In this document: positions 9,855 through 24,409 of the stretch, one piece after another
How positions within the stretch are numbered: position 1 is the first letter of the stretch
Layout of the letters: each line of letters opens with the position of its first letter
Origin: Heteronotia binoei
Lineage: Eukaryota
DNA length: 64,000 nt
Assembly (NCBI RefSeq): GCF_032191835.1
Contig: NC_083227.1
Location: 43,152,001-43,216,000 of the forward strand
Direction of reading: 5' to 3'
Notes under the pieces: generated by a model
The model's input: the letters and a program-made list of their open reading frames with translations, nothing else
What the model was told of the DNA's origin: nothing
Databases searched by the model: none
Translations under genes and position numbers: made by a program

Positions 9855-9962
9855 CAGTAGGTAGCCTCTGGTTGTCTTGCTTTGCGACACCGGGCATAGA
9901 ATTCCTGGCAATGCTGGATCGTGCTCTGGCAATCTGAGAGCAGCACAAGTCCAGAGCTTTCC
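9855..9962 (-). CDS. RPUSD3: RPUSD3 exon 5
   Basis: ESSGLVLLSDCQSTIQHCQEFYARCRKARQPEATY; cctag|..|gtgagt. Confidence 0.93.
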
Positions 9963-10404
9963 CTAGGAAGATACGACAGACTTAGCAACCATTGACTGTA
10001 CAACAAAAATTAAATTAATTTAAAAGACTCCTGTCTAAGCTGCATTCTGAGGTAAAACATTTTGGGGGCAGCTGAAGGAAGGTCATTTTAAAACAATTCC
10101 AATTAGCATGAAGAATGCTAATCACACCAATTTTTTTTTAAAACCACAGCAGTGATTATCAATTTATATTCATGCTTCCATTCTGTGTATGAGGCAGAAA
10201 ATCAGTAATTTGCCTGAGGCAGTTCTTAACTGAGATGGGATCTGGTGCATTGCTTTATCCACTATCAGATGCAGAACTGGCAGCCATGGTTTATTTCCCC
10301 ATCCGTTCTATCGCCACAGCTCCACAGTTTATTCTGCTGTGAGAAGCCTAATCCTTTCTGCAGGCAGCTTGATATCAGTCTTCCCAGCACTGCATCTCAC
10401 TTAC

Positions 10405-10504
10405 TTTCCTGGAGCTTTGATCAACCGCACATCCTGTGAGAGGCCCAGTTTCTGGCTTAGATCAGGCAAAAGAGAAACTAAAGTCATGTCATCATCTGGC
10501 TTTC
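10405..10504 (-). CDS. RPUSD3: RPUSD3 exon 4
   Basis: (G)KPDDDMTLVSLLPDLSQKLGLSQDVRLIKAPGK; canonical splice sites; lacks the HRLD catalytic Asp, as known for RPUSD3. Confidence 0.92.
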
Positions 10505-11075: not shown

Positions 11076-12022
11076 AATTTTCTCAGATAGATTCCTCTCT
11101 TCTTAATATCTTTTGGATAGTTAAACTTCTGAAATGAAGATTCCAGATTCACAAGAATTGGAGACAGAGGAGTGGGAATTACACACACACACAAAGTTGT
11201 GCCATTGTATTAATTCTATCAAATGTGCAAAGTTAAAACATCCACAGTTGCAGAAGGCATTCTGTTACAGAATTTGGTATCCTCTGATGGAGAAATCAAG
11301 GCATACACGTGGCCTGTTGGCTCTGACACCAACCTTTATCCCAAGTCTACATAGTTGGTAACCCCTCCAAGCTGAACACAGCTCAGGATGGCTTGTCAGC
11401 CTGCCTGGATTTGCAAAAACAGAAAGGATATCTAACTTTCGGCAGGCCTCTATTCATGATCAGCAGATTGTTTGGCTTGATGGACCATAAGTTTGCCTGG
11501 TTTAGACCAGCTTCTTCCAACCAGCCACTGGGTCCCAACCCTAAAGTTGGTTGCCAAGCTGTGAAAATAGGCTTTTGAGTTTTATTTATTTGTCCCTGCT
11601 TGGATTTTCTAAGTGGATCGCCGTACTAAGTAAATCTGGATGGGTCACCATACCAAAAAGGCTGGGAATGACCATTTTTCAGACTGTTTGCCTAACCCCC
11701 TTAAACTCATTGGATCTTCCTCATGCCCAGCTCTGACTGGCTATTGCTACTCTCCTATTCCTATTACAACACGCACTATGTTAAATCAGGTCTATTAAAA
11801 ACATTTTAAGTTGTTAAGTGTTCAGGGTTTCAACCCCAAGCTGCACAACTGGCTCCAACAAGTCACAGAAAAACAGAGTGGAACCTTTGTGCTATTATCA
11901 TACAATTGGGTGGTTTGTACTGACTCAAAGTAGGATGATCTAGTGGAGTTCTCCAAAAATATTGCTGGGGGCAACAAACGAACCATAATTAATTTCCAAA
12001 AGATTTTTTTAAACTGGGTTTG

Positions 12023-12299
12023 TGTAGGGGTACAGGAACAAGTATCAGACATCACGCTGGCAAACCACGTGACTTGCCTGTGCTGCCTGTACCCTGCAGG
12101 GCCCCAACCGAAACTGCTTCGTGTGCATTGTACTTTGCCCTGGCACCACTGTTGTAAAAGGGTATCAATCATTACCTGAGCCAACGCCTGGCTTACAAGG
12201 ATATAAAATAAAGCACCGCTCCTGGCCCGACAGAGCAGCTCTTTACCCCACGGTCGTCTCATCTGGCTTCTTGACTCCCACAGCCTCTCGGCTCCCACA
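12023..12299 (+). repeat. ERV 5' LTR (277 bp)
   Basis: TGTAGGGG..CTCCCACA; TATA and AATAAA overlap in GATATAAAATAAAG (~12200-12213). Confidence 0.97.
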
Positions 12300-12301
12300 G
12301 C

Positions 12302-12319
12302 TGGTGACCCCGACGTGAT
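12302..12319 (+). promoter_or_regulatory. Primer-binding site, tRNA-Trp
   Basis: TGGTGACCCCGACGTGAT, 2 nt after the LTR end; same 18-mer as the recalled ASLV/RSV tRNA-Trp PBS. Confidence 0.9.
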
Positions 12320-12372
12320 CAGCTCCCGGCTCCTGCTCACCCGACCCTTCGGTCTTCACGGTGCACCAATTT

Positions 12373-12381
12373 CAGGTGAGT
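12373..12381 (+). promoter_or_regulatory. ERV major splice donor
   Basis: CAG|GTGAGT immediately before the gag ATG at 12382. Confidence 0.7.
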
Positions 12382-13351
12382 ATGGGGGAAACGTTGTCTA
12401 AGGAACAGGTAGTGCATGCAGATGAACTAAGGAAATTATGTCAGTCACAGCAGCCAGACAGATGTCCGTCAGGGAAAGAGATCCTTGAGCTCCTGCGGGA
12501 GATAGACTGCCAGTGTCCATGGTATCCACAATGTGGTTCCATGAAGCCCAGTGACTGGGGGAAAATCGGAGCGGAATTAAAACAGGAACCCCGCGCTCCT
12601 ATGTCTCTGCTCATAACCTGGCAGCGGATTCATCATGCTATTTGCCAGTTCACTCCGGCTGAGAACATCCTCTGTAAGCCCCCTGAGACGTCGGGTGAAC
12701 CCCCTCCTTATCTCTACCCGGCCCTGGCCCCTTGGTCAGAGGCCTCAGCTCCCGTGGGAGCTCCCCAGACGGTTGTGTCTCCCAGTGAGCCTCTGGGCTC
12801 AGTCCTCCCAGTGCCCCAGTCCTCTCCCGCCATGCTTCTCAGTCCCTTAGAACTCTCTTTGGCTCGAGCCCAAGAGGCAGGGGAACTGGACTTGTCAGAG
12901 GATTGGGGGGGGGGAATCTCCAGGGCTGTTCCCCAGAACACGGGGACCAGATCCTAGTCACCCTGACCGAGTTTAGCAAAGCAAAGCAAAGCAAAGCGAA
13001 TTTTATTTTTATATCCCGCCCTCCCCCGCCAGAAGGCGGGCTCAGGGCGGCTCACAGACATGACAAGCATGATTTGGTTAAAATAGACAACAATGGTTTA
13101 AATAATACAATTACATGAATTAATAAAGTTTAAAAATATAACAATAAGAGAATAGGAGATTAAAAGATATAAAAATATAAGGTAGGTAGAAATAGGTGAC
13201 CTGGACAGGGCTACCTTATTCTGTCCTGAGAGAATTGAATAAATCTATTAAGGAATATGGGTTAAAATCCACCTTTGTGCAAGGGACCTTGGAGGGCATC
13301 GCCCAAGGATATGCCATGTTGCCCTATGATTGGAAAACCCTCTTGAAATAA
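12382..13351 (+). pseudogene. gag: ERV gag (MA, PPPY late domain, start of CA), disrupted
   Basis: MGETLS (myristoylation consensus), CPWYPQCGSMKPSDWGKIG (beta-type MA), PPPY at 12700-12711; frameshift at G10 run 12905-12914; LINE insertion 12974-13195; CA N-terminal part WTGLPYSVLRELNKSIKEYG..LPYDWKTLLK* at 13202-13351. Confidence 0.9.
12974..13195 (-). mobile_element. 5'-truncated L2-type LINE 3' end inserted into gag
   Basis: (AAAGC)n tail followed by TTTATATCCCGCCCTCCCCCGCC..CTCAGGGCGGCTCACA, the same 3' end as at ~62490-62560; gag frame resumes at 13196. Confidence 0.7.
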
Positions 13352-16137
13352 ACTCAGCCAAATTCAGCTTGAGTTAAAGAAACTGGAAAGAGTTACAATT
13401 TTGAGCCCCACCCAGGCAGAAAGCTCATTATTTCCCTCTTTTCCACCTTTCTTTGTAAAAACTTATCAGGATTAGATAAGAGAGTACTGGCCAAATCCAT
13501 TGTGTCTGTTAAAACCTTCCCCTTCTTTCCCATCTAGGGGGGGAGGGTGGAAATAGTGTGGAAATATTTTTGTGCTATTTTGAATTCTCATCTCCTGATT
13601 TTGGGTCTAAAAGATATAATTTCAAAAGTCTTTCATTACCAAACCTTTTTCTAATATTGCAGTCTCTCACAGACAGCCTCTCCCCAGCCAGAGAAATACC
13701 TGGCTGGAAGATGTGCATACTACTTTGTTTTTGTAAGGTCGCCAGTCTCCAGGTGGGACCTGGAGGTCTCTCCCGAAATCATAGCCTTTTCCCCAATACA
13801 TTGAGGCTAAAGCCTCTGGAGGGAATAGGTGTCCAAGGAAATGAACTGCATGCCTTGTGATTTTCACATTTGATTCACTATTTCAGGAATCTCCAGCCTG
13901 GAGCTGGCATCCCAAAGTTCTACTTACAGCCAATCCTTCTCCGCTGGAGAGACTCCTCTGCCTGTAAACTGCCCTAATACCAGGAGTTCTCCTAGGTTAA
14001 TAATTTTCTAGTGACTGGTAAACCCTTTTAAAATAGTCAGCCTATGATTTCCATTGTTCTAAGGAAATGGTGCACCTAATAGAGACTCCTTTTTTGTTAT
14101 TTCTAGTAGTTTTCTTATACAGGGCAATGTCTTAAACTTTACCTCACAAATTTTGGTTCCTACAAGCAGTATAGGACATCTGTACATTTCCTTGGGGTAA
14201 ACGTACCTTCTCCCTGTGCTTTTTCTCTCTTAAGCTTCCAGACCTCATACTCTTGTTTTTTGGCAGAATTCCTGAAAGTTCTTGGTCTCCATTAGAAATC
14301 TGGATTCCTCAAATGTATTTCAACTATTGATATCTTCATTTGCCCTCTGCATGTCATTTGTAGTTATGTTCCATCTATGATCAATCTTCCCCTTTCTAGC
14401 TATTTGGTGCAGCTTGAGTTTTAATTGTTGTTTAATCCAGTCTGCCTGTGGAAAGAGGTATCCACATGTTCTTAAAAGGCCCCACCTTGTGGGCTCAGTA
14501 TATCTTGTTAGAGCCAGACTTTTCTGAGTGAACACCCTTTTCTATTTTCCATGTTCTCAAGGAAATGAGCCATAACCTGTTAGATTCTTAATGTAGATCC
14601 CTCAGGGTTCATTTCTGATCATGATTTTCTTCTTGCTACTAAATGTCCTTTTGTGTTATTTTTGCCTCAATAAAGGCCCTTCAATTTAAGTCTTGTTGTA
14701 TTATGCTCAACTTTTGGTCTACTTGGTATTTCTGACAGTGTGTTGCCTTCCAGCAACACATTCTTTGCACTCTGTGTATGCACAGAGGAACATCATTCTC
14801 TGGCACAAGCCTTAAACCTGGAGCATTGTGCCATCATCCTAGTTCTACCTTTTACTCCATAAAAGGTCTCTTCTTAAAGGGATATGCTTTCGTGCTTCTA
14901 GTCTTTCTTTTGACTTGTCCTTGCAACAACTCAGCATTTTAATCTTGGTCCTACAGATGCCTTGACACATCTTTTCTCTTTTTATGCATTGTTTTAGTGT
15001 GTCTATCAAGGTATTAACCATGATTTGATTTCTAGGATTTTGTAACCGTTTTGTTAAGTTTGCTCATCTTTTCTTTCAATATAGATGTGCAGGGAATCTG
15101 GACCTGCAAATCAAGTCTAATGCATGCTCAGTAGTTCTAAAGGTTGTTGATAGTCCTGTTAAGAATTGTTTTATGTATGTGTAACCCTCATGTTCCTTTT
15201 CAAAATCCTTGTTTTGTTAAGTTTTGTTGAAATCTATGCTCACATGTGAGACCCCCATGCCAAGATCGTTTTAGCTGACCTAGCCCAGAGAAACACTGGA
15301 TTTAGTGGGACCTGATCACCTCACTTATGTCCAGGTTTTTAATTTCTCTGATCTAGCTCACCTATCATATAAAGCTAGCTAGCATTGTTCTATTGAGGCC
15401 TCAGTTTTTGTTTTTGAAGTTTTTATATTGTTTTGACAATTTATTATATTCCAAGGCTATAGCAAAGGTTTTCTTTTGTCTCTTTTTTATGGAACTATTT
15501 TCATCATATGGGGGACGCCCCAAACTATGGTCATTTTCCTGGATTGTGCACAATGTTTTATTTTAAGTTTTATGTTGCAACAAAGAATATTTTGGGTTGT
15601 GTTTTCTGTATTGTGTATGTTACTTTCCTCCCTTGACAAGGAAGAAGCCTCCTGAAGTCCTGAATGCTTAGTGTACTAGGCAAACCTGCCCAATGCAGGC
15701 CCCTAACGTGACATATGTACGCTTGTGACGTCAAAGCTCACTGGTCACCATACTCTGGACAGGAAGACGCTTCCCTACTAACTTTTTCAGACTCCTTTCT
15801 TCATGGTTGAATGTATGCATTTTTGATCTGCTTTCACTGCTCCCTACACTGGTACGGAGTCATCTCCATGTTGTCATGTGTGAATGTTTTTGGTTCCTTT
15901 TTGGGTTTTTTCCTCAAGCCCCCTGTTGCTGTATGGACCATCGGTGATACCGGCAGGACAGCACCGTTGCCAATTCTATGCTGGGTTACAGGAAGAATTC
16001 CCTTTTGGCAACCATAAAGACACATTTCATTGGGTGCTAGGGGGGGTGGGCAGGCTCTTTAGTTCACCCTCCCCTAGGCCTTTCACATACCCAATAGGTC
16101 CATGGCAGAAGATCCTCTTCCAACCCCAGTATAAGAA

Positions 16138-16431
16138 GCTTATCAACGAGGGGAGAACGTGAAACGGGTTATTTCTCATTTTGTCCGCGCCATGGCTGTT
16201 ATGGGTCGTCCTGCCACCCTCCAAACAGACAATGGCCCTGCTTCCTGTTGCTCCGCCTTTGCTGAATTTTGTGGCCGCTGGCACGTTCGGCATCTCTACG
16301 GTATTCCCTTTAATTCCACAGGTCAAGCTGTTGTGGAGCGTGCCAACCGTACCTTGAACGCTGCCCTGGCTGTTCTTGAAAAACAGAAAGGGGGAGAATC
16401 CCCCTCCGCTGTTTCCTGTGACATGCTCTGA
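16138..16431 (+). pseudogene. pol: ERV integrase catalytic-core fragment
   Basis: RGENVKRVISHFVRAMAVMGRPATLQTDNGPA..GIPFNSTGQAVVERANRTL..KQKGG; class II IN core; N- and C-terminal domains absent. Confidence 0.92.
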
Positions 16432-17503
16432 GCACAAAACCTTTTTATTGTTTGTTGTTGGTTCCAGTCAATGCAGAACTAGTTACTCAGTCTCCTCCTC
16501 AGAATTTGTGGGTTCGACACGCTGCGTATATGTTTCGGCATCATGGTACTAATGTTACACTTGTATATGAACCCCCCATGTCTGTTTCCTCTATGTCTTT
16601 CCTGCCCACCCCCTTTCAAGCTCCAGAAATAGTATTAGCCCAATTACAGGATTTAAACCGCTCCTATATGTTTACCAACCCATTGGAGGACGATGTTAAT
16701 GCTACTCGCTTTCGCATGTTTCATTACCAATATGCCTTGCCAGGAATGTGCTTTTGTTGCGGCGCTACAAATAACGCCTTTTCCAAGTGGAAAGGACTTG
16801 CTGATGGGAACAAACATTGGCTTAGTCACAAGAATCAGACTCATTGTAGTGACCGATTCTGGGTGGGAGGCGGTAATAACATGAACTTTAATTCGTCTTA
16901 TAATGTTAATATTTCCCTTATGAATTCTACTTGGGACATTTTGCAAGTCTCACAGGCATTTTAACCTTAGGCGGCTATTCTAATATAGTAGCACAGGAGA
17001 ACCGTGCTTCCATCATTGGACTCACCTGCCGTCTAGAACAATCCATTAATGCAACTACCTCCATCATTCGTGACCTACAGAAGGAAATCTTCAGTCTGCA
17101 CCAAATACAGTTGCAGCACCGGCTTGCCCTGGACTATCTGTTGGCACGCCAAGGAGGGTTTTGCAAGATTGTTGGGCCAGCAGCCTGTGAGGTACGGTTT
17201 CAAGACTTCAACCGGACCATCGAGGAAGAGTTGAAGCACTTGCACAACCTCATTGCGGATAATGCACTCCGTCCTGATTGGGACCCTTTTGCTTGGCTAA
17301 CCTCCCTGCTTCCAGACCCTACTTGGCTCCGACAATTGATTTGTGCCATAATTGTAATTGTTGTTCTTTTAATCATTGCCTGTTGTTGTATTCAGTGCCT
17401 TCCTAATTTGCTGCAAATGTGTACACGTTCTAAGGAAACATGGCAACGGCGTGCATTGTATTATGCTTATCATCAGCTTAAAAACAAAAAGGGGGAGATG
17501 TAG
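16423..17503 (+). pseudogene. env: ERV env (signal peptide, shortened SU, intact-looking TM) with frameshifts
   Basis: SU frame 16422-16964 (PFYCLLLVPVNA/ELVTQSPPQNLWVRHA..); TM frame 16910-17503 with heptad, ISD LQHRLALDYLLARQGGFC, CX7C loop and membrane anchor LICAIIVIVVLLIIACCC; no furin site; ATG 16423 one nt out of frame. Confidence 0.92.
17480..17498 (+). promoter_or_regulatory. ERV 3' polypurine tract
   Basis: AAAAACAAAAAGGGGGAGA directly before the 3' LTR TG. Confidence 0.9.
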
Positions 17504-17793
17504 GGGTACAGGAACAAGTATCAGACATCACGCTGGCAAACCACGTGACTTGCCTGTGCTGCCTGTACCCTGCAGGGCCCCAACCGAAACTGCTTCGTGT
17601 GCATTGTACTTTGCCCTGGCACCACTGTTGTAAAAGGGTATCAATCATTACCTGAGCCAACGCCTGGCTTACAAGGATATAAAATAAAGCACCGCTCCTG
17701 GCCCGACAGAGCAGCTCTTTACCCCACGGTCGTCTCGTCTGGCTTCTTGACTCCCACAGCCTTTTTGGCTCCCACAGCCTCTCGGCTCCCACA
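17499..17793 (+). repeat. ERV 3' LTR (295 bp)
   Basis: Identical to the 5' LTR except one A/G substitution (12261 vs 17737) and one extra 18-bp unit in U5 (CTTTTTGGCTCCCACAGC). Confidence 0.97.
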
Positions 17794-17863
17794 GGTTTGC
17801 ATGACAATAATGTTTGTAAGGATCCCATGATACAAACATCCTTCCCTAATCAAAACTCTAGAG

Positions 17864-21431: not shown

Positions 21432-23946
21432 GTGGGGGCGGGAGAACGGGCAGGGTGTATTTGGCTGCTTCCGCCTTCCCCCAGGGTTGCCTGCCAACCT
21501 ACAGGTGGGGGATGTCGTTCTCCCGGAATTGCAGCTGACCTCCGGATGACAGAGATCAGTTCCCCTGGAGAAAATGGCAGCCTTAGAGGGTAAACTAGTG
21601 AGGGTAAATCGCATGCCTACTGAGCCCGCTCCCCTCACCAAACGCCATCTTTTCAAACCTCCAAGGATTTCCCGCAACCCACCGTTGGTAGTCTTATTTG
21701 CAATTTCTTTCTGGGAGAGGAAGGAACAAGCTGCTCGTTTGTACATGTTTCAGTTATGTAAACCCGTGTGAATGATTTAGTTAATCTATGATACAAGAGA
21801 GAGTGAAGGGAGAGGGAAAATAATCCGTTTCAGTTCCTAATACGGTTGTCAGTTGTCTTCTTGGGGGTTTTTGGTCCTTGTAATAACGACATCCAGTAAA
21901 CGGGATTTAGGCTTAAACAGAAAGGTTTCTTGCCCACTCCAGGTATTAAATTATATTACTAGAATAGGAAGACGTCCGTCGTGCTTCCTGATCACTGGCT
22001 TATCTTGTCATGTCAGTTATGCAGACTTGCCTGGGAAGCGACCTCTTGTATTTTATGGCCTTTTAACCCTACAGTTTCTCTTCTAACTATGTGTGTATCC
22101 ATACTGGCTGAAGTTTCACTTCATAAAGATCAGGGCTCTAGCTAAAGTTGCCAGGTGGCCTGTAGAAAAATGCCCCATCCCTTGAATATGTCAAAATGGG
22201 GAGCTGAAGCTTTTCCTTGCATGAAGGTATATGACATCCCTATTAGCCCCCCCCCCCCCCATTAAAGGGACAGGACTTTTTTTTCTGCTGGCAGTAAGCA
22301 ATCCTATCTTTAGCCTACAAAACATTATGCTATAATATATCAGTTTTTAAGGTGCCTCAGATCATCTTTTTTGGTTTTGCTCTAACAAACTAATATGGTT
22401 TTCCCACTGGAATTTTTATCTGCAGGCTCAAGTGAAAACAGCTACTGAAATTCTGCACAGGAGCTTTGCCAGAAAAAATCTGGCAGCTCAACCTGCTAAA
22501 AACAGGATTGCCACTTGACCTTTCCTGTGAAGGCTGGTATGCCTTACAACAGAGCAGACTATGTAGTTCTTTGCCACCTTTTAAAGTGCACCACCATTGA
22601 TTACCAGAGCTCTGTACAACTTTTATGACTGATGCAAAAATATTCTTGCTTCCATCGGTTTCTCTTGTTTGTGCCAGCCTTGGCATCATTCTGGTGGTAC
22701 TCTTGGACTCTCTCCACATTTGCCCCATCATTTGTACAATGGGATGCACCTGCTGAGTTGTCATAAGGATAATGAATAAGAATAGTAAAGCTTTTTCAGT
22801 GTTGTAGAAATGACTGCCCTAACCTGAGTGTCCCAGACTAACCCAACTCATCAGATCTCGAAAGCTAAGCAGGGTCGGACCTGGTTTGTACCATCCACCA
22901 AGGAAATCCCGGATTGCTTTGCAGAGGTAGACAATGGCAAACCACCTTTATTCATCTCTTGCCTTGAAAATCCCATGCTGGGTTGCCATGAGTCGGCTGC
23001 AACTTGGCACATTTCACCATCAGAACTGCTTGGTCATAAATATTACTGCGAGACAGGCTTGTCAGGTTGGGGATTTTATTATGGAAAGTGCACAGTTTCA
23101 TTGTCTGTTGGGCCATAAGACAAGGCTAGGTGTACATATGCGTGCAGCACAATGAAGCTGTAGATTTCACTGTGAGCGACCCAAAATAAGGGCCTGTCTT
23201 GCACTGTACCATCTGTTTGCCAAAGGGGGTATGGTTAACAAGCTACTGTCTTACAAACCTTTATGCCTGGTCCCTCTTCTTCCCCTGGAATGTGAAAGTC
23301 TGCAGACCACAGCATGATGTCTAAAAGCTGGAAAGTTAACTTCTTGCTTCAGACTTGTGAACTCCTGGCCTTGTGCCTCTTCACCTGATCTTTCTTTGAT
23401 CTGTAGTGCAATCCTAAGCAGAATTCCACCTCTAAACCCATTAATTTCAATGACCTTAGAAGGAGTATACCTTTGCTAAGAATGGCACTGTTGGTGTCCA
23501 CAATCCAGGTACCGTGTTTTATATAATTAGAAAAGCTGGGGGGGGGGGGTTACTGTGTTTTTCTCAAAAGAGTCTCCGAGTAGCTTTTAAACGCCTTCCC
23601 TTCCTCTCCCCACAGCAGTGACCTTGTGAGGTAGGTGGGGCTGAGAGAACTGTGACTGGCAGCATGCGGAAAAGCAGGAGAATCAAATCTGGTTCTCCAA
23701 ATTAGAGTCTGCTGTATAACATTTATATCCCCCTTTTCTGCCCTCACAAGGGCCACAAAGGCAACTAACAAATCAAAACATACATAATAAAAATCACATA
23801 ATAAAAATACCTCCCCCACAAAAAACACAGATCATTAAAACCAGAGCCAAAATACAAAGATGTAAGAACAACAATTAAATGCTTGTGATCACCTTTAGCA
23901 TTGGCCCTTGGCTGTCCAGCATCACCTCTCTTTCTCCTCCCTACAG

Positions 23947-24409
23947 TGTGTCCCTCAAATCTGAGATTAAGAAGTTGATCTACATGCAAGTGGCGCTGTG
24001 GCTGCTGGTGGCAGCGCAGATGTGTGTCGCTCACCTCAAGTTGCTGTCCCACGATCAGGTGGCCATGCCCTATCAGTGGGAATACCCATACTTGCTCAGT
24101 ATCATCCCTTCGCTCTTTGGCCTCCTCTCCTTCCCCCGAAACAACATCAGCTACCTGGTGATCTCCATGATCAGCACAGGCCTTTTCTCGGTGGCACCTC
24201 TCATCTACGGCAGCATGGAGATGTTCCCCATGGCTCAGCAGCTCTACCGTCACGGCAAGGCCTACCGCTTCATCTTTGGCTTCTCCGCCGTCTCGGTCAT
24301 GTACTTGCTGGTCGTGATTGCTGTGCAGGTCCACAGCTGGCAGCTTTATTACAGCAAGAAGCTCCTGGACTCCTGGTTCACCAGCACACAGGAGAAGAAG
24401 AAGAAATGA
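23947..24409 (+). CDS. JAGN1: JAGN1 exon 2
   Basis: ctacag|TGTGTCC; [42 protein letters not shown]; total 183 aa; C-terminal dilysine ER-retrieval motif. Confidence 0.97.

Follow-up and report, generated by a model that had tools for sequence, protein, structure and literature searches.

How a provirus can look young at its ends and old in its middle is the question raised by a retroviral insertion in the gecko Heteronotia binoei. Within the window, the whole 64,000-nucleotide stretch of DNA that was analysed, this provirus occupies positions 12023-17793. An earlier note described it as a pair of near-identical LTRs around an insert of about 2.8 kb, hereafter the cargo, and took the insert for host DNA. 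Its parts are listed below, with positions in the window.

12017..12022, forward strand: 5′ target-site duplication (TSD) GGTTTG
12023..12299, forward strand: 5′ LTR of 277 bp, TG...CA
12302..12319, forward strand: primer-binding site, the same motif as in sister proviruses
12382..13341, forward strand: gag remnant, from MA to the first third of the CA N-terminal domain (Gag_p10 match; alignment to pol-bearing sisters)
12977..13193, forward strand: fragment (217 bp) of a dispersed young host repeat, bounded by the 3-bp repeat TAG
13337..13341, forward strand: 5′ junction of class II gag and family B, 5-bp microhomology ACCCT
13337..16157, forward strand: cargo, sense-strand non-coding interior of the gag-only LTR family B
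13737..13851, forward strand: decayed relic of a dispersed host repeat, present in family B too (profile search)
16144..16157, forward strand: 3′ junction of family B and integrase (IN), with a perfect 7-bp core GGGGAGA inside 11/13 matching bases
16144..16431, forward strand: IN remnant, part of the core (rve match; alignment to sisters)
16422..17503, forward strand: env remnant, split over two frames (TLV_coat match)
17486..17498, forward strand: polypurine tract
17499..17793, forward strand: 3′ LTR of 295 bp
17794..17799, forward strand: 3′ TSD GGTTTG

The two LTRs are indeed near-identical, differing by one substitution and one 18-bp indel of a tandem unit, and the primer-binding site is one that we take to be of the tRNA-Trp type. 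The gag frame ends at a stop at 12955-12957, and env is without 126 bp, at 16939/16942, that are found in most sister copies. The cargo breakpoints, first placed at ~13348 and ~16138, had to be moved to 13337-13341 and 16144-16157. That part of gag-pol was lost had been recognised correctly, but not its extent, which was given as the CA C-terminal domain through RT/RNase H; the replaced viral sequence amounts to ~3.4 kb, begins within the CA N-terminal domain, ends within the IN core and takes in NC, PR and the IN zinc finger. The 217-bp repeat in gag is shared with 5 of 35 other cargo-bearing copies and is a truer example of host-repeat capture than the cargo; it belongs to a high-copy repeat with at least 33 sites outside known proviruses at 97-99% identity. 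Nearby host features in the window are a spliced transcript at 9855-10503 (reverse strand), ~1.5 kb upstream of the provirus, and a Jagunal (JAGN1-like) coding exon at 23879-24409 (forward strand), 6 kb downstream.

The cargo itself is AT/T-rich, CpG-poor and full of stops, as had been reported: its GC content is 0.40, its AT skew −0.20 and its CpG observed/expected ratio 0.14 (0.46-0.67 for viral genes in a sister with pol), and each frame contains 36-65 stops. The decayed host-repeat fragment noticed in it also proved real: a profile built from 11 host copies in the window scored 23.2 bits at 13737-13851 with 100 shuffles at or below 6.1, while plain blastn was borderline (33.7 bits, a level reached in 1 of 30 shuffles). 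Searches of the cargo against Pfam in all six frames and against Rfam for known RNA families returned no match. An antisense L1 or other coding relic was ruled out by the six-frame Pfam result and by eight related pol proteins, which matched no better than E 0.017.

As the earlier note had advised, the genome was searched with the cargo segment. This search gave 989 candidates, 40 of which were scored: 35 of these loci hold proviruses that share the backbone and the cargo (family A), and 5 are family B elements that contain no class II sequence. LTR pairs could be delineated in 28 of the 35 and were identical in 23, with 8 mismatches over ~8,100 bp in total; 27 of the 28 have their own 6-bp TSD and one has a TSD of 5 bp. 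On the assumption of a neutral rate of about 2e-9 per site and year, the LTR divergence of 0.1% would correspond to a few hundred thousand years. The 3′ junction motif of the window provirus occurs at 31 sites, 29 in family A proviruses and 2 in donor-family copies. The proposed capture before integration is thus borne out by a junction common to 29 proviruses, by the separate TSDs of the copies that were delineated, and by the lack of a TSD at the cargo ends. Since neither a TSD nor element ends surround it, the cargo is not a later insertion.

In contigs of RNA runs X1 and X3, which come from two studies, 30 of 30 and 28 of 30 interior bins of the provirus were covered, and the non-repeat flank had no cover in X1, X3 or X4. 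The 5′ junction was crossed by contigs in both X1 and X3 and the 3′ junction in X3, which suggests that the hybrid is transcribed, by contigs that carry neither strand nor level; raw RNA runs X9 and X10 gave thin cover only. With regard to insertion polymorphism between individuals, the flank was covered in none of the DNA runs, and the insertion site in no run of any kind. Because contigs of two studies cross the junctions, misassembly is excluded. An assembly artefact or a later insertion into a single provirus has therefore a negligible chance of explaining junctions that are common to dozens of loci with distinct TSDs.

Family A copies found through the cargo necessarily contain it, and retention of a shared core in every copy is not claimed for this reason. 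A second search with an env motif, run to avoid this bias, found 62 sites, 38 with cargo and 24 without; position alone assigns one of the 38, and another, located on a small contig, probably duplicates a further copy. Family A is a young class II endogenous retrovirus family whose hybrid copies lack pol, and its designation as a non-autonomous variant holds, in that copies without pol have multiplied to dozens of sites. The idea that env was kept as a contribution to a helper is unsupported: the longest terminal env frame is 401 codons in the cargo copies (33 of the 38 measured), while some sisters have 575.

One site in the assembly, L080, has the full RT region at 98% identity or more to the query, and two more sites reach 71-73% (all 20 candidates scored). 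L080 contains Gag_p10, p24, two zinc knuckles, RVP, RVT_thumb and Integrase_Zn domains. The chains nearest to its pol are 7sr6 for RT and 7usf/3jca for IN, a comparison by nearest chain rather than by an RT tree, and its IN scores 231 bits to 7usf and 162 to 7jn3; we take 7sr6 to be HERV-K, 7usf and 3jca MMTV, and 7jn3 RSV. By these sequence comparisons the backbone is class II and beta-like rather than ASLV-like, despite its Trp-type primer site. Cargo copies are close to L080 in leader/MA (90-99.8%), 3′ env (96-99.5%) and the LTR (83-98%), and more distant in the stubs beside the cargo (CA 86%, IN 74%). In addition, 15 cargo copies have regained NC/pro at 97.2-99.3% identity to L080. Such a mosaic would be the trace expected of repeated co-packaging with a helper lineage, and these signs of recombination point to mobilisation of the hybrid in trans.

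The cargo matches family B at 87-91% identity in sense orientation. Rather than non-viral host DNA, as the earlier note had it, the insert is therefore the interior of another, multi-copy LTR family. Copies of family B are 10-11 kb long, with 1.25-kb LTRs at 99-100% identity and 4-bp TSDs (5 of 5), and combine a single long Gag-like frame with 4.5 kb of non-coding sequence on the 3′ side. The Gag stretch had 176 matches, with 150 candidates scored, and at least 135 sites at 76% identity or more, most of them within open frames of 760-930 codons. The frame of one copy (L085:103-2691) comprises a coiled coil and a capsid; the capsid part is missing from copies L055 and L060. Another copy hosts a nested copia-type element with an 879-codon frame (L132:5192-7828). 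Two public gene models, P0001 and P0002, fuse the family B Gag to MHC class I-like and vomeronasal receptor domains and are probably annotation artefacts of intronic insertions.

As for the affinity of family B, the predicted structure of the central part of its Gag (pLDDT 79) has MLV CA as its best match (E 8.6e-4). Database matches are unnamed or 'uncharacterized' gecko proteins, relatives in other geckos are 26-30% identical, and the match to foamy Gag in the Atlas scores only 0.81. Among 17 diverged relatives, one (L133) carries gag, one stop and then pol with tether and RNase H domains. This element (L133:4203-8012, reverse strand) has a pol of 1270 codons, with relatives at 51-81% that include turtle and ostrich; downstream of pol another repeat occupies the region, and no env was seen there. 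Its RT scored 185 bits with foamy-type, 179 with MLV-type and 115 with Ty3-type sequences and 61 with 7sr6, as scores rather than a tree with reference lokiretroviruses. In PMC7947760, the traits that define lokiretroviruses include an RT sister to all other retroviruses and an Env related to the paramyxovirus fusion protein; PMC13568524 is a further source on retrovirus classification. The loki-type traits found here, a Gag CA fold like that of MLV/Ty3 and the tether and RNase H of the L133 pol, are common to other retroviruses, and from its sequence family B may equally well be a lokiretrovirus or a class III (ENS-like) element.

Family B sequence continues past both cargo junctions in all five donors, and pol-bearing sisters hold ~3.4 kb of gag-pro-pol at the position of the cargo; the transfer thus went from family B to the class II virus, in sense. 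Family B already shows the CpG loss and the host-repeat relic, so that the old look of the cargo was inherited from its donor, and it has a second host-repeat relic outside the captured part. Against related pol proteins, the non-coding region of family B gave nothing better than E 0.017, and the ultimate source of this region may therefore be host DNA. To that extent the sequence would fit classical transduction as in avian sarcoma viruses, in which a read-through transcript of a unique locus, CpG-poor and with a host-repeat relic, was captured and family B acquired the same sequence separately. We consider this very improbable, since the cargo clade is nested among family B copies, family B extends past both junctions and holds its second relic beyond them, and, in what is a weak test, no unique host donor was among the 40 candidates scored out of 989. 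The ASLV-style event proposed by the earlier note thus gives way to capture, in sense, from a young, high-copy LTR family by a virus whose sister has a beta-like pol.

In a tree of 63 rows, the 31 cargo rows formed a single clade (100/100) among 32 family B rows, its place among them having weak support (80/76). Separate captures for the two main 5′ junction types were rejected, as both types intermix in this clade. The closest of 24 young family B copies is ~91% identical to the cargo, so the exact donor was not found; two older copies reach 96-97%, but only over the first 180 bp. The exact viral parent was not found either, as the CA stub is 97% like one sister and the IN stub 89-90% like another, and the microhomologies that inspection of the junctions revealed, 5 bp on the 5′ side and a 7-bp core on the 3′ side, are accordingly read against relatives. 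Altogether, five of seven viral/cargo junctions examined had microhomology (5, 7, 8, 8 and 11 bp) and two had no clear one, while random pairs share at least 5 bp in 0.5%, at least 7 in 0.05% and at least 8 in 0.01% of cases.

Microhomology also marks joints made by DNA repair, and ectopic recombination, gene conversion or repair between integrated elements, followed by retrotransposition, could have produced the hybrid; PMC6112702 leaves this route open for recKoRV. We regard it as improbable here, because every capture joined donor and acceptor in one and the same (RNA) orientation and because repeated passage through particles would account for several later exchanges with dispersed sister lineages. 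It is very probable, in our judgement, that the window provirus is a copy of a pol-less class II family that obtained its middle from family B by template switching and was spread in trans by a pol-bearing sister. Established in this account are the family structure, the identity of the donor, the junction microhomologies, the separate integrations and the subsequent swaps of flanking viral segments with sister lineages. For the remainder, family B RNA would have been co-packaged in a class II particle, the reverse transcriptase would have switched template twice, by copy-choice during minus-strand synthesis, and the pol-bearing sister would have amplified the hybrid in trans. Cross-packaging between distant retroviruses is documented (PMC5086612).

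This capture may not have been the only one. A second tree, of 52 rows, placed the provirus L150 apart from the cargo clade; together with an 11-bp microhomology at a junction of its own, this makes a second capture likely. The sequence of L049, L050, L150 and L151 jumps from cargo to env and then returns to IN, in each case at 8 bp of microhomology. Older class II elements of ~6.6 kb with LTRs of ~400 bp (family C, L105-L126; LTR pairs 89-97% identical in 5 of 6 copies examined) contain gag and IN fragments and host-repeat pieces. Behind IN and the env leader, in place of env, they carry a patchy, colinear homologue of the captured family B region at 65-90% identity.

Repeated capture would be expected if the cargo were a functional cis-acting RNA module, acting in export, packaging or stability, that favours its carriers. 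Besides L150 and family C, this possibility draws on the contrast between one cargo junction common to 29 proviruses and the many deletion types among the 24 cargo-less, env-bearing sisters. We still think it unlikely: the cargo has no Rfam match, some copies have lost large parts of it and integrated nonetheless, family B is so abundant that RNA supply alone would lead to repeated capture, and apparent retention is biased in copies that were found via the cargo. Most likely, the cargo is passive filler between intact cis signals, namely the LTRs, primer site, leader and polypurine tract.

The cargo also shows an odd, strand-specific excess of A>C changes. When 31 cargo copies were polarised by 24 family B copies over 14540-16140 of the window, 72 of 193 derived changes were A>C, compared with 5 T>G (Fisher p 4e-25), and within family B 12 of 267 were A>C. 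The share was 18 of 48 among fixed, 35 of 69 among shared and 19 of 76 among single changes. Elsewhere in the proviruses, with the rare allele taken as derived, A>C made up 3 of 52 changes in leader/MA, 2 of 59 in 3′ env and 8 of 34 in IN/5′ env. A genome-wide bias was rejected, as the excess is weak in leader/MA and 3′ env, regions swapped with sisters and less well polarised, and partial in IN/5′ env. According to PMC3001061, 8-oxo-dGTP in reverse transcription in vitro causes exactly such A-to-C changes; the weak bias in leader/MA and 3′ env makes selection on the cargo RNA a rival to a mutagenic origin. No account of an A>C bias in endogenous retroviruses was found in the literature searched, which left out most subscription journals. 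A speculative and rather unlikely proposal would combine these observations: the T-rich region of family B would be a transferable cis-acting module, captured at least three times by class II viruses (the main family, L150 and family C) for export or packaging, and its A>C drift, from a mutagenic step of reverse transcription such as 8-oxo-dGTP use, could be counted as replication rounds.

Acutely transforming avian sarcoma/leukosis viruses have foreign sequence in place of viral genes, a Trp-type primer site, 6-bp TSDs and a dependence on helper virus. The gecko hybrid shares the first three and would share the last, but its non-coding cargo stems from another LTR family instead of a host gene, and the pol of its sister is beta-like. 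Another parallel involves KoRV, a gammaretrovirus. In recKoRV1 (PMC6112702), a piece of PhER lies between the ends of KoRV; microhomologies and TSDs are present, and co-packaging has been proposed. As there, the 5′ LTR and gag start and the 3′ env and LTR come from a young retrovirus and the middle from an unrelated, high-copy endogenous element, transcribed in the koala case and perhaps in the gecko, with microhomology at the breakpoints, many TSD-flanked copies and, probably, repeated independent recombinants. Unlike recKoRV1, the gecko hybrid has a class II backbone, a retained IN stub, later swaps with sisters and a strand-specific A>C bias, and its donor is young (LTRs 99-100%) with open Gag frames, whereas the recKoRV donor is old and degraded. 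In ETn/MusD of mouse (PMC6466679), a class II non-coding derivative likewise outnumbers its pol-bearing partner, and ETn is mobilised in trans; in the gecko, the donor family of the middle is identified and the junctions are mapped, and trans-mobilisation is the probable route. The class II backbone joined to a still-young foamy/loki-like donor, the two or more probable captures and the mutation signature appear to set the gecko hybrid apart from known cases. No description of family A or B came up in the literature searched; supplements and Repbase/Dfam lay outside that search, and either family may be catalogued there.

Family B in its turn has the plan of Bhikhari, a zebrafish lokiretrovirus, and of chicken ENS-1/ERNI, sister to ERV-L: LTRs, one Gag frame with coiled coil and capsid, no pol and many young copies (PMC12067270). 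The likeness is one of plan without sequence match, and family B differs in its 10-11 kb length and its 4.5-kb non-coding 3′ region. It is a large, young, gag-only gecko family like the developmentally important Bhikhari and ERNI. For young proviruses in general, the case calls for caution, in that 'host-like' inserts may derive from other LTR families. With a cargo that is non-coding and a donor family to act as outgroup, the hybrid copies offer a natural record of how a germ-line retrovirus mutates. That the partners belong to very distant retroviral lineages suggests that the RNAs of such lineages meet during reverse transcription, and H. binoei provides a reptile case of the recKoRV process, with the donor family, the sister lineages and dozens of dated products in one genome.
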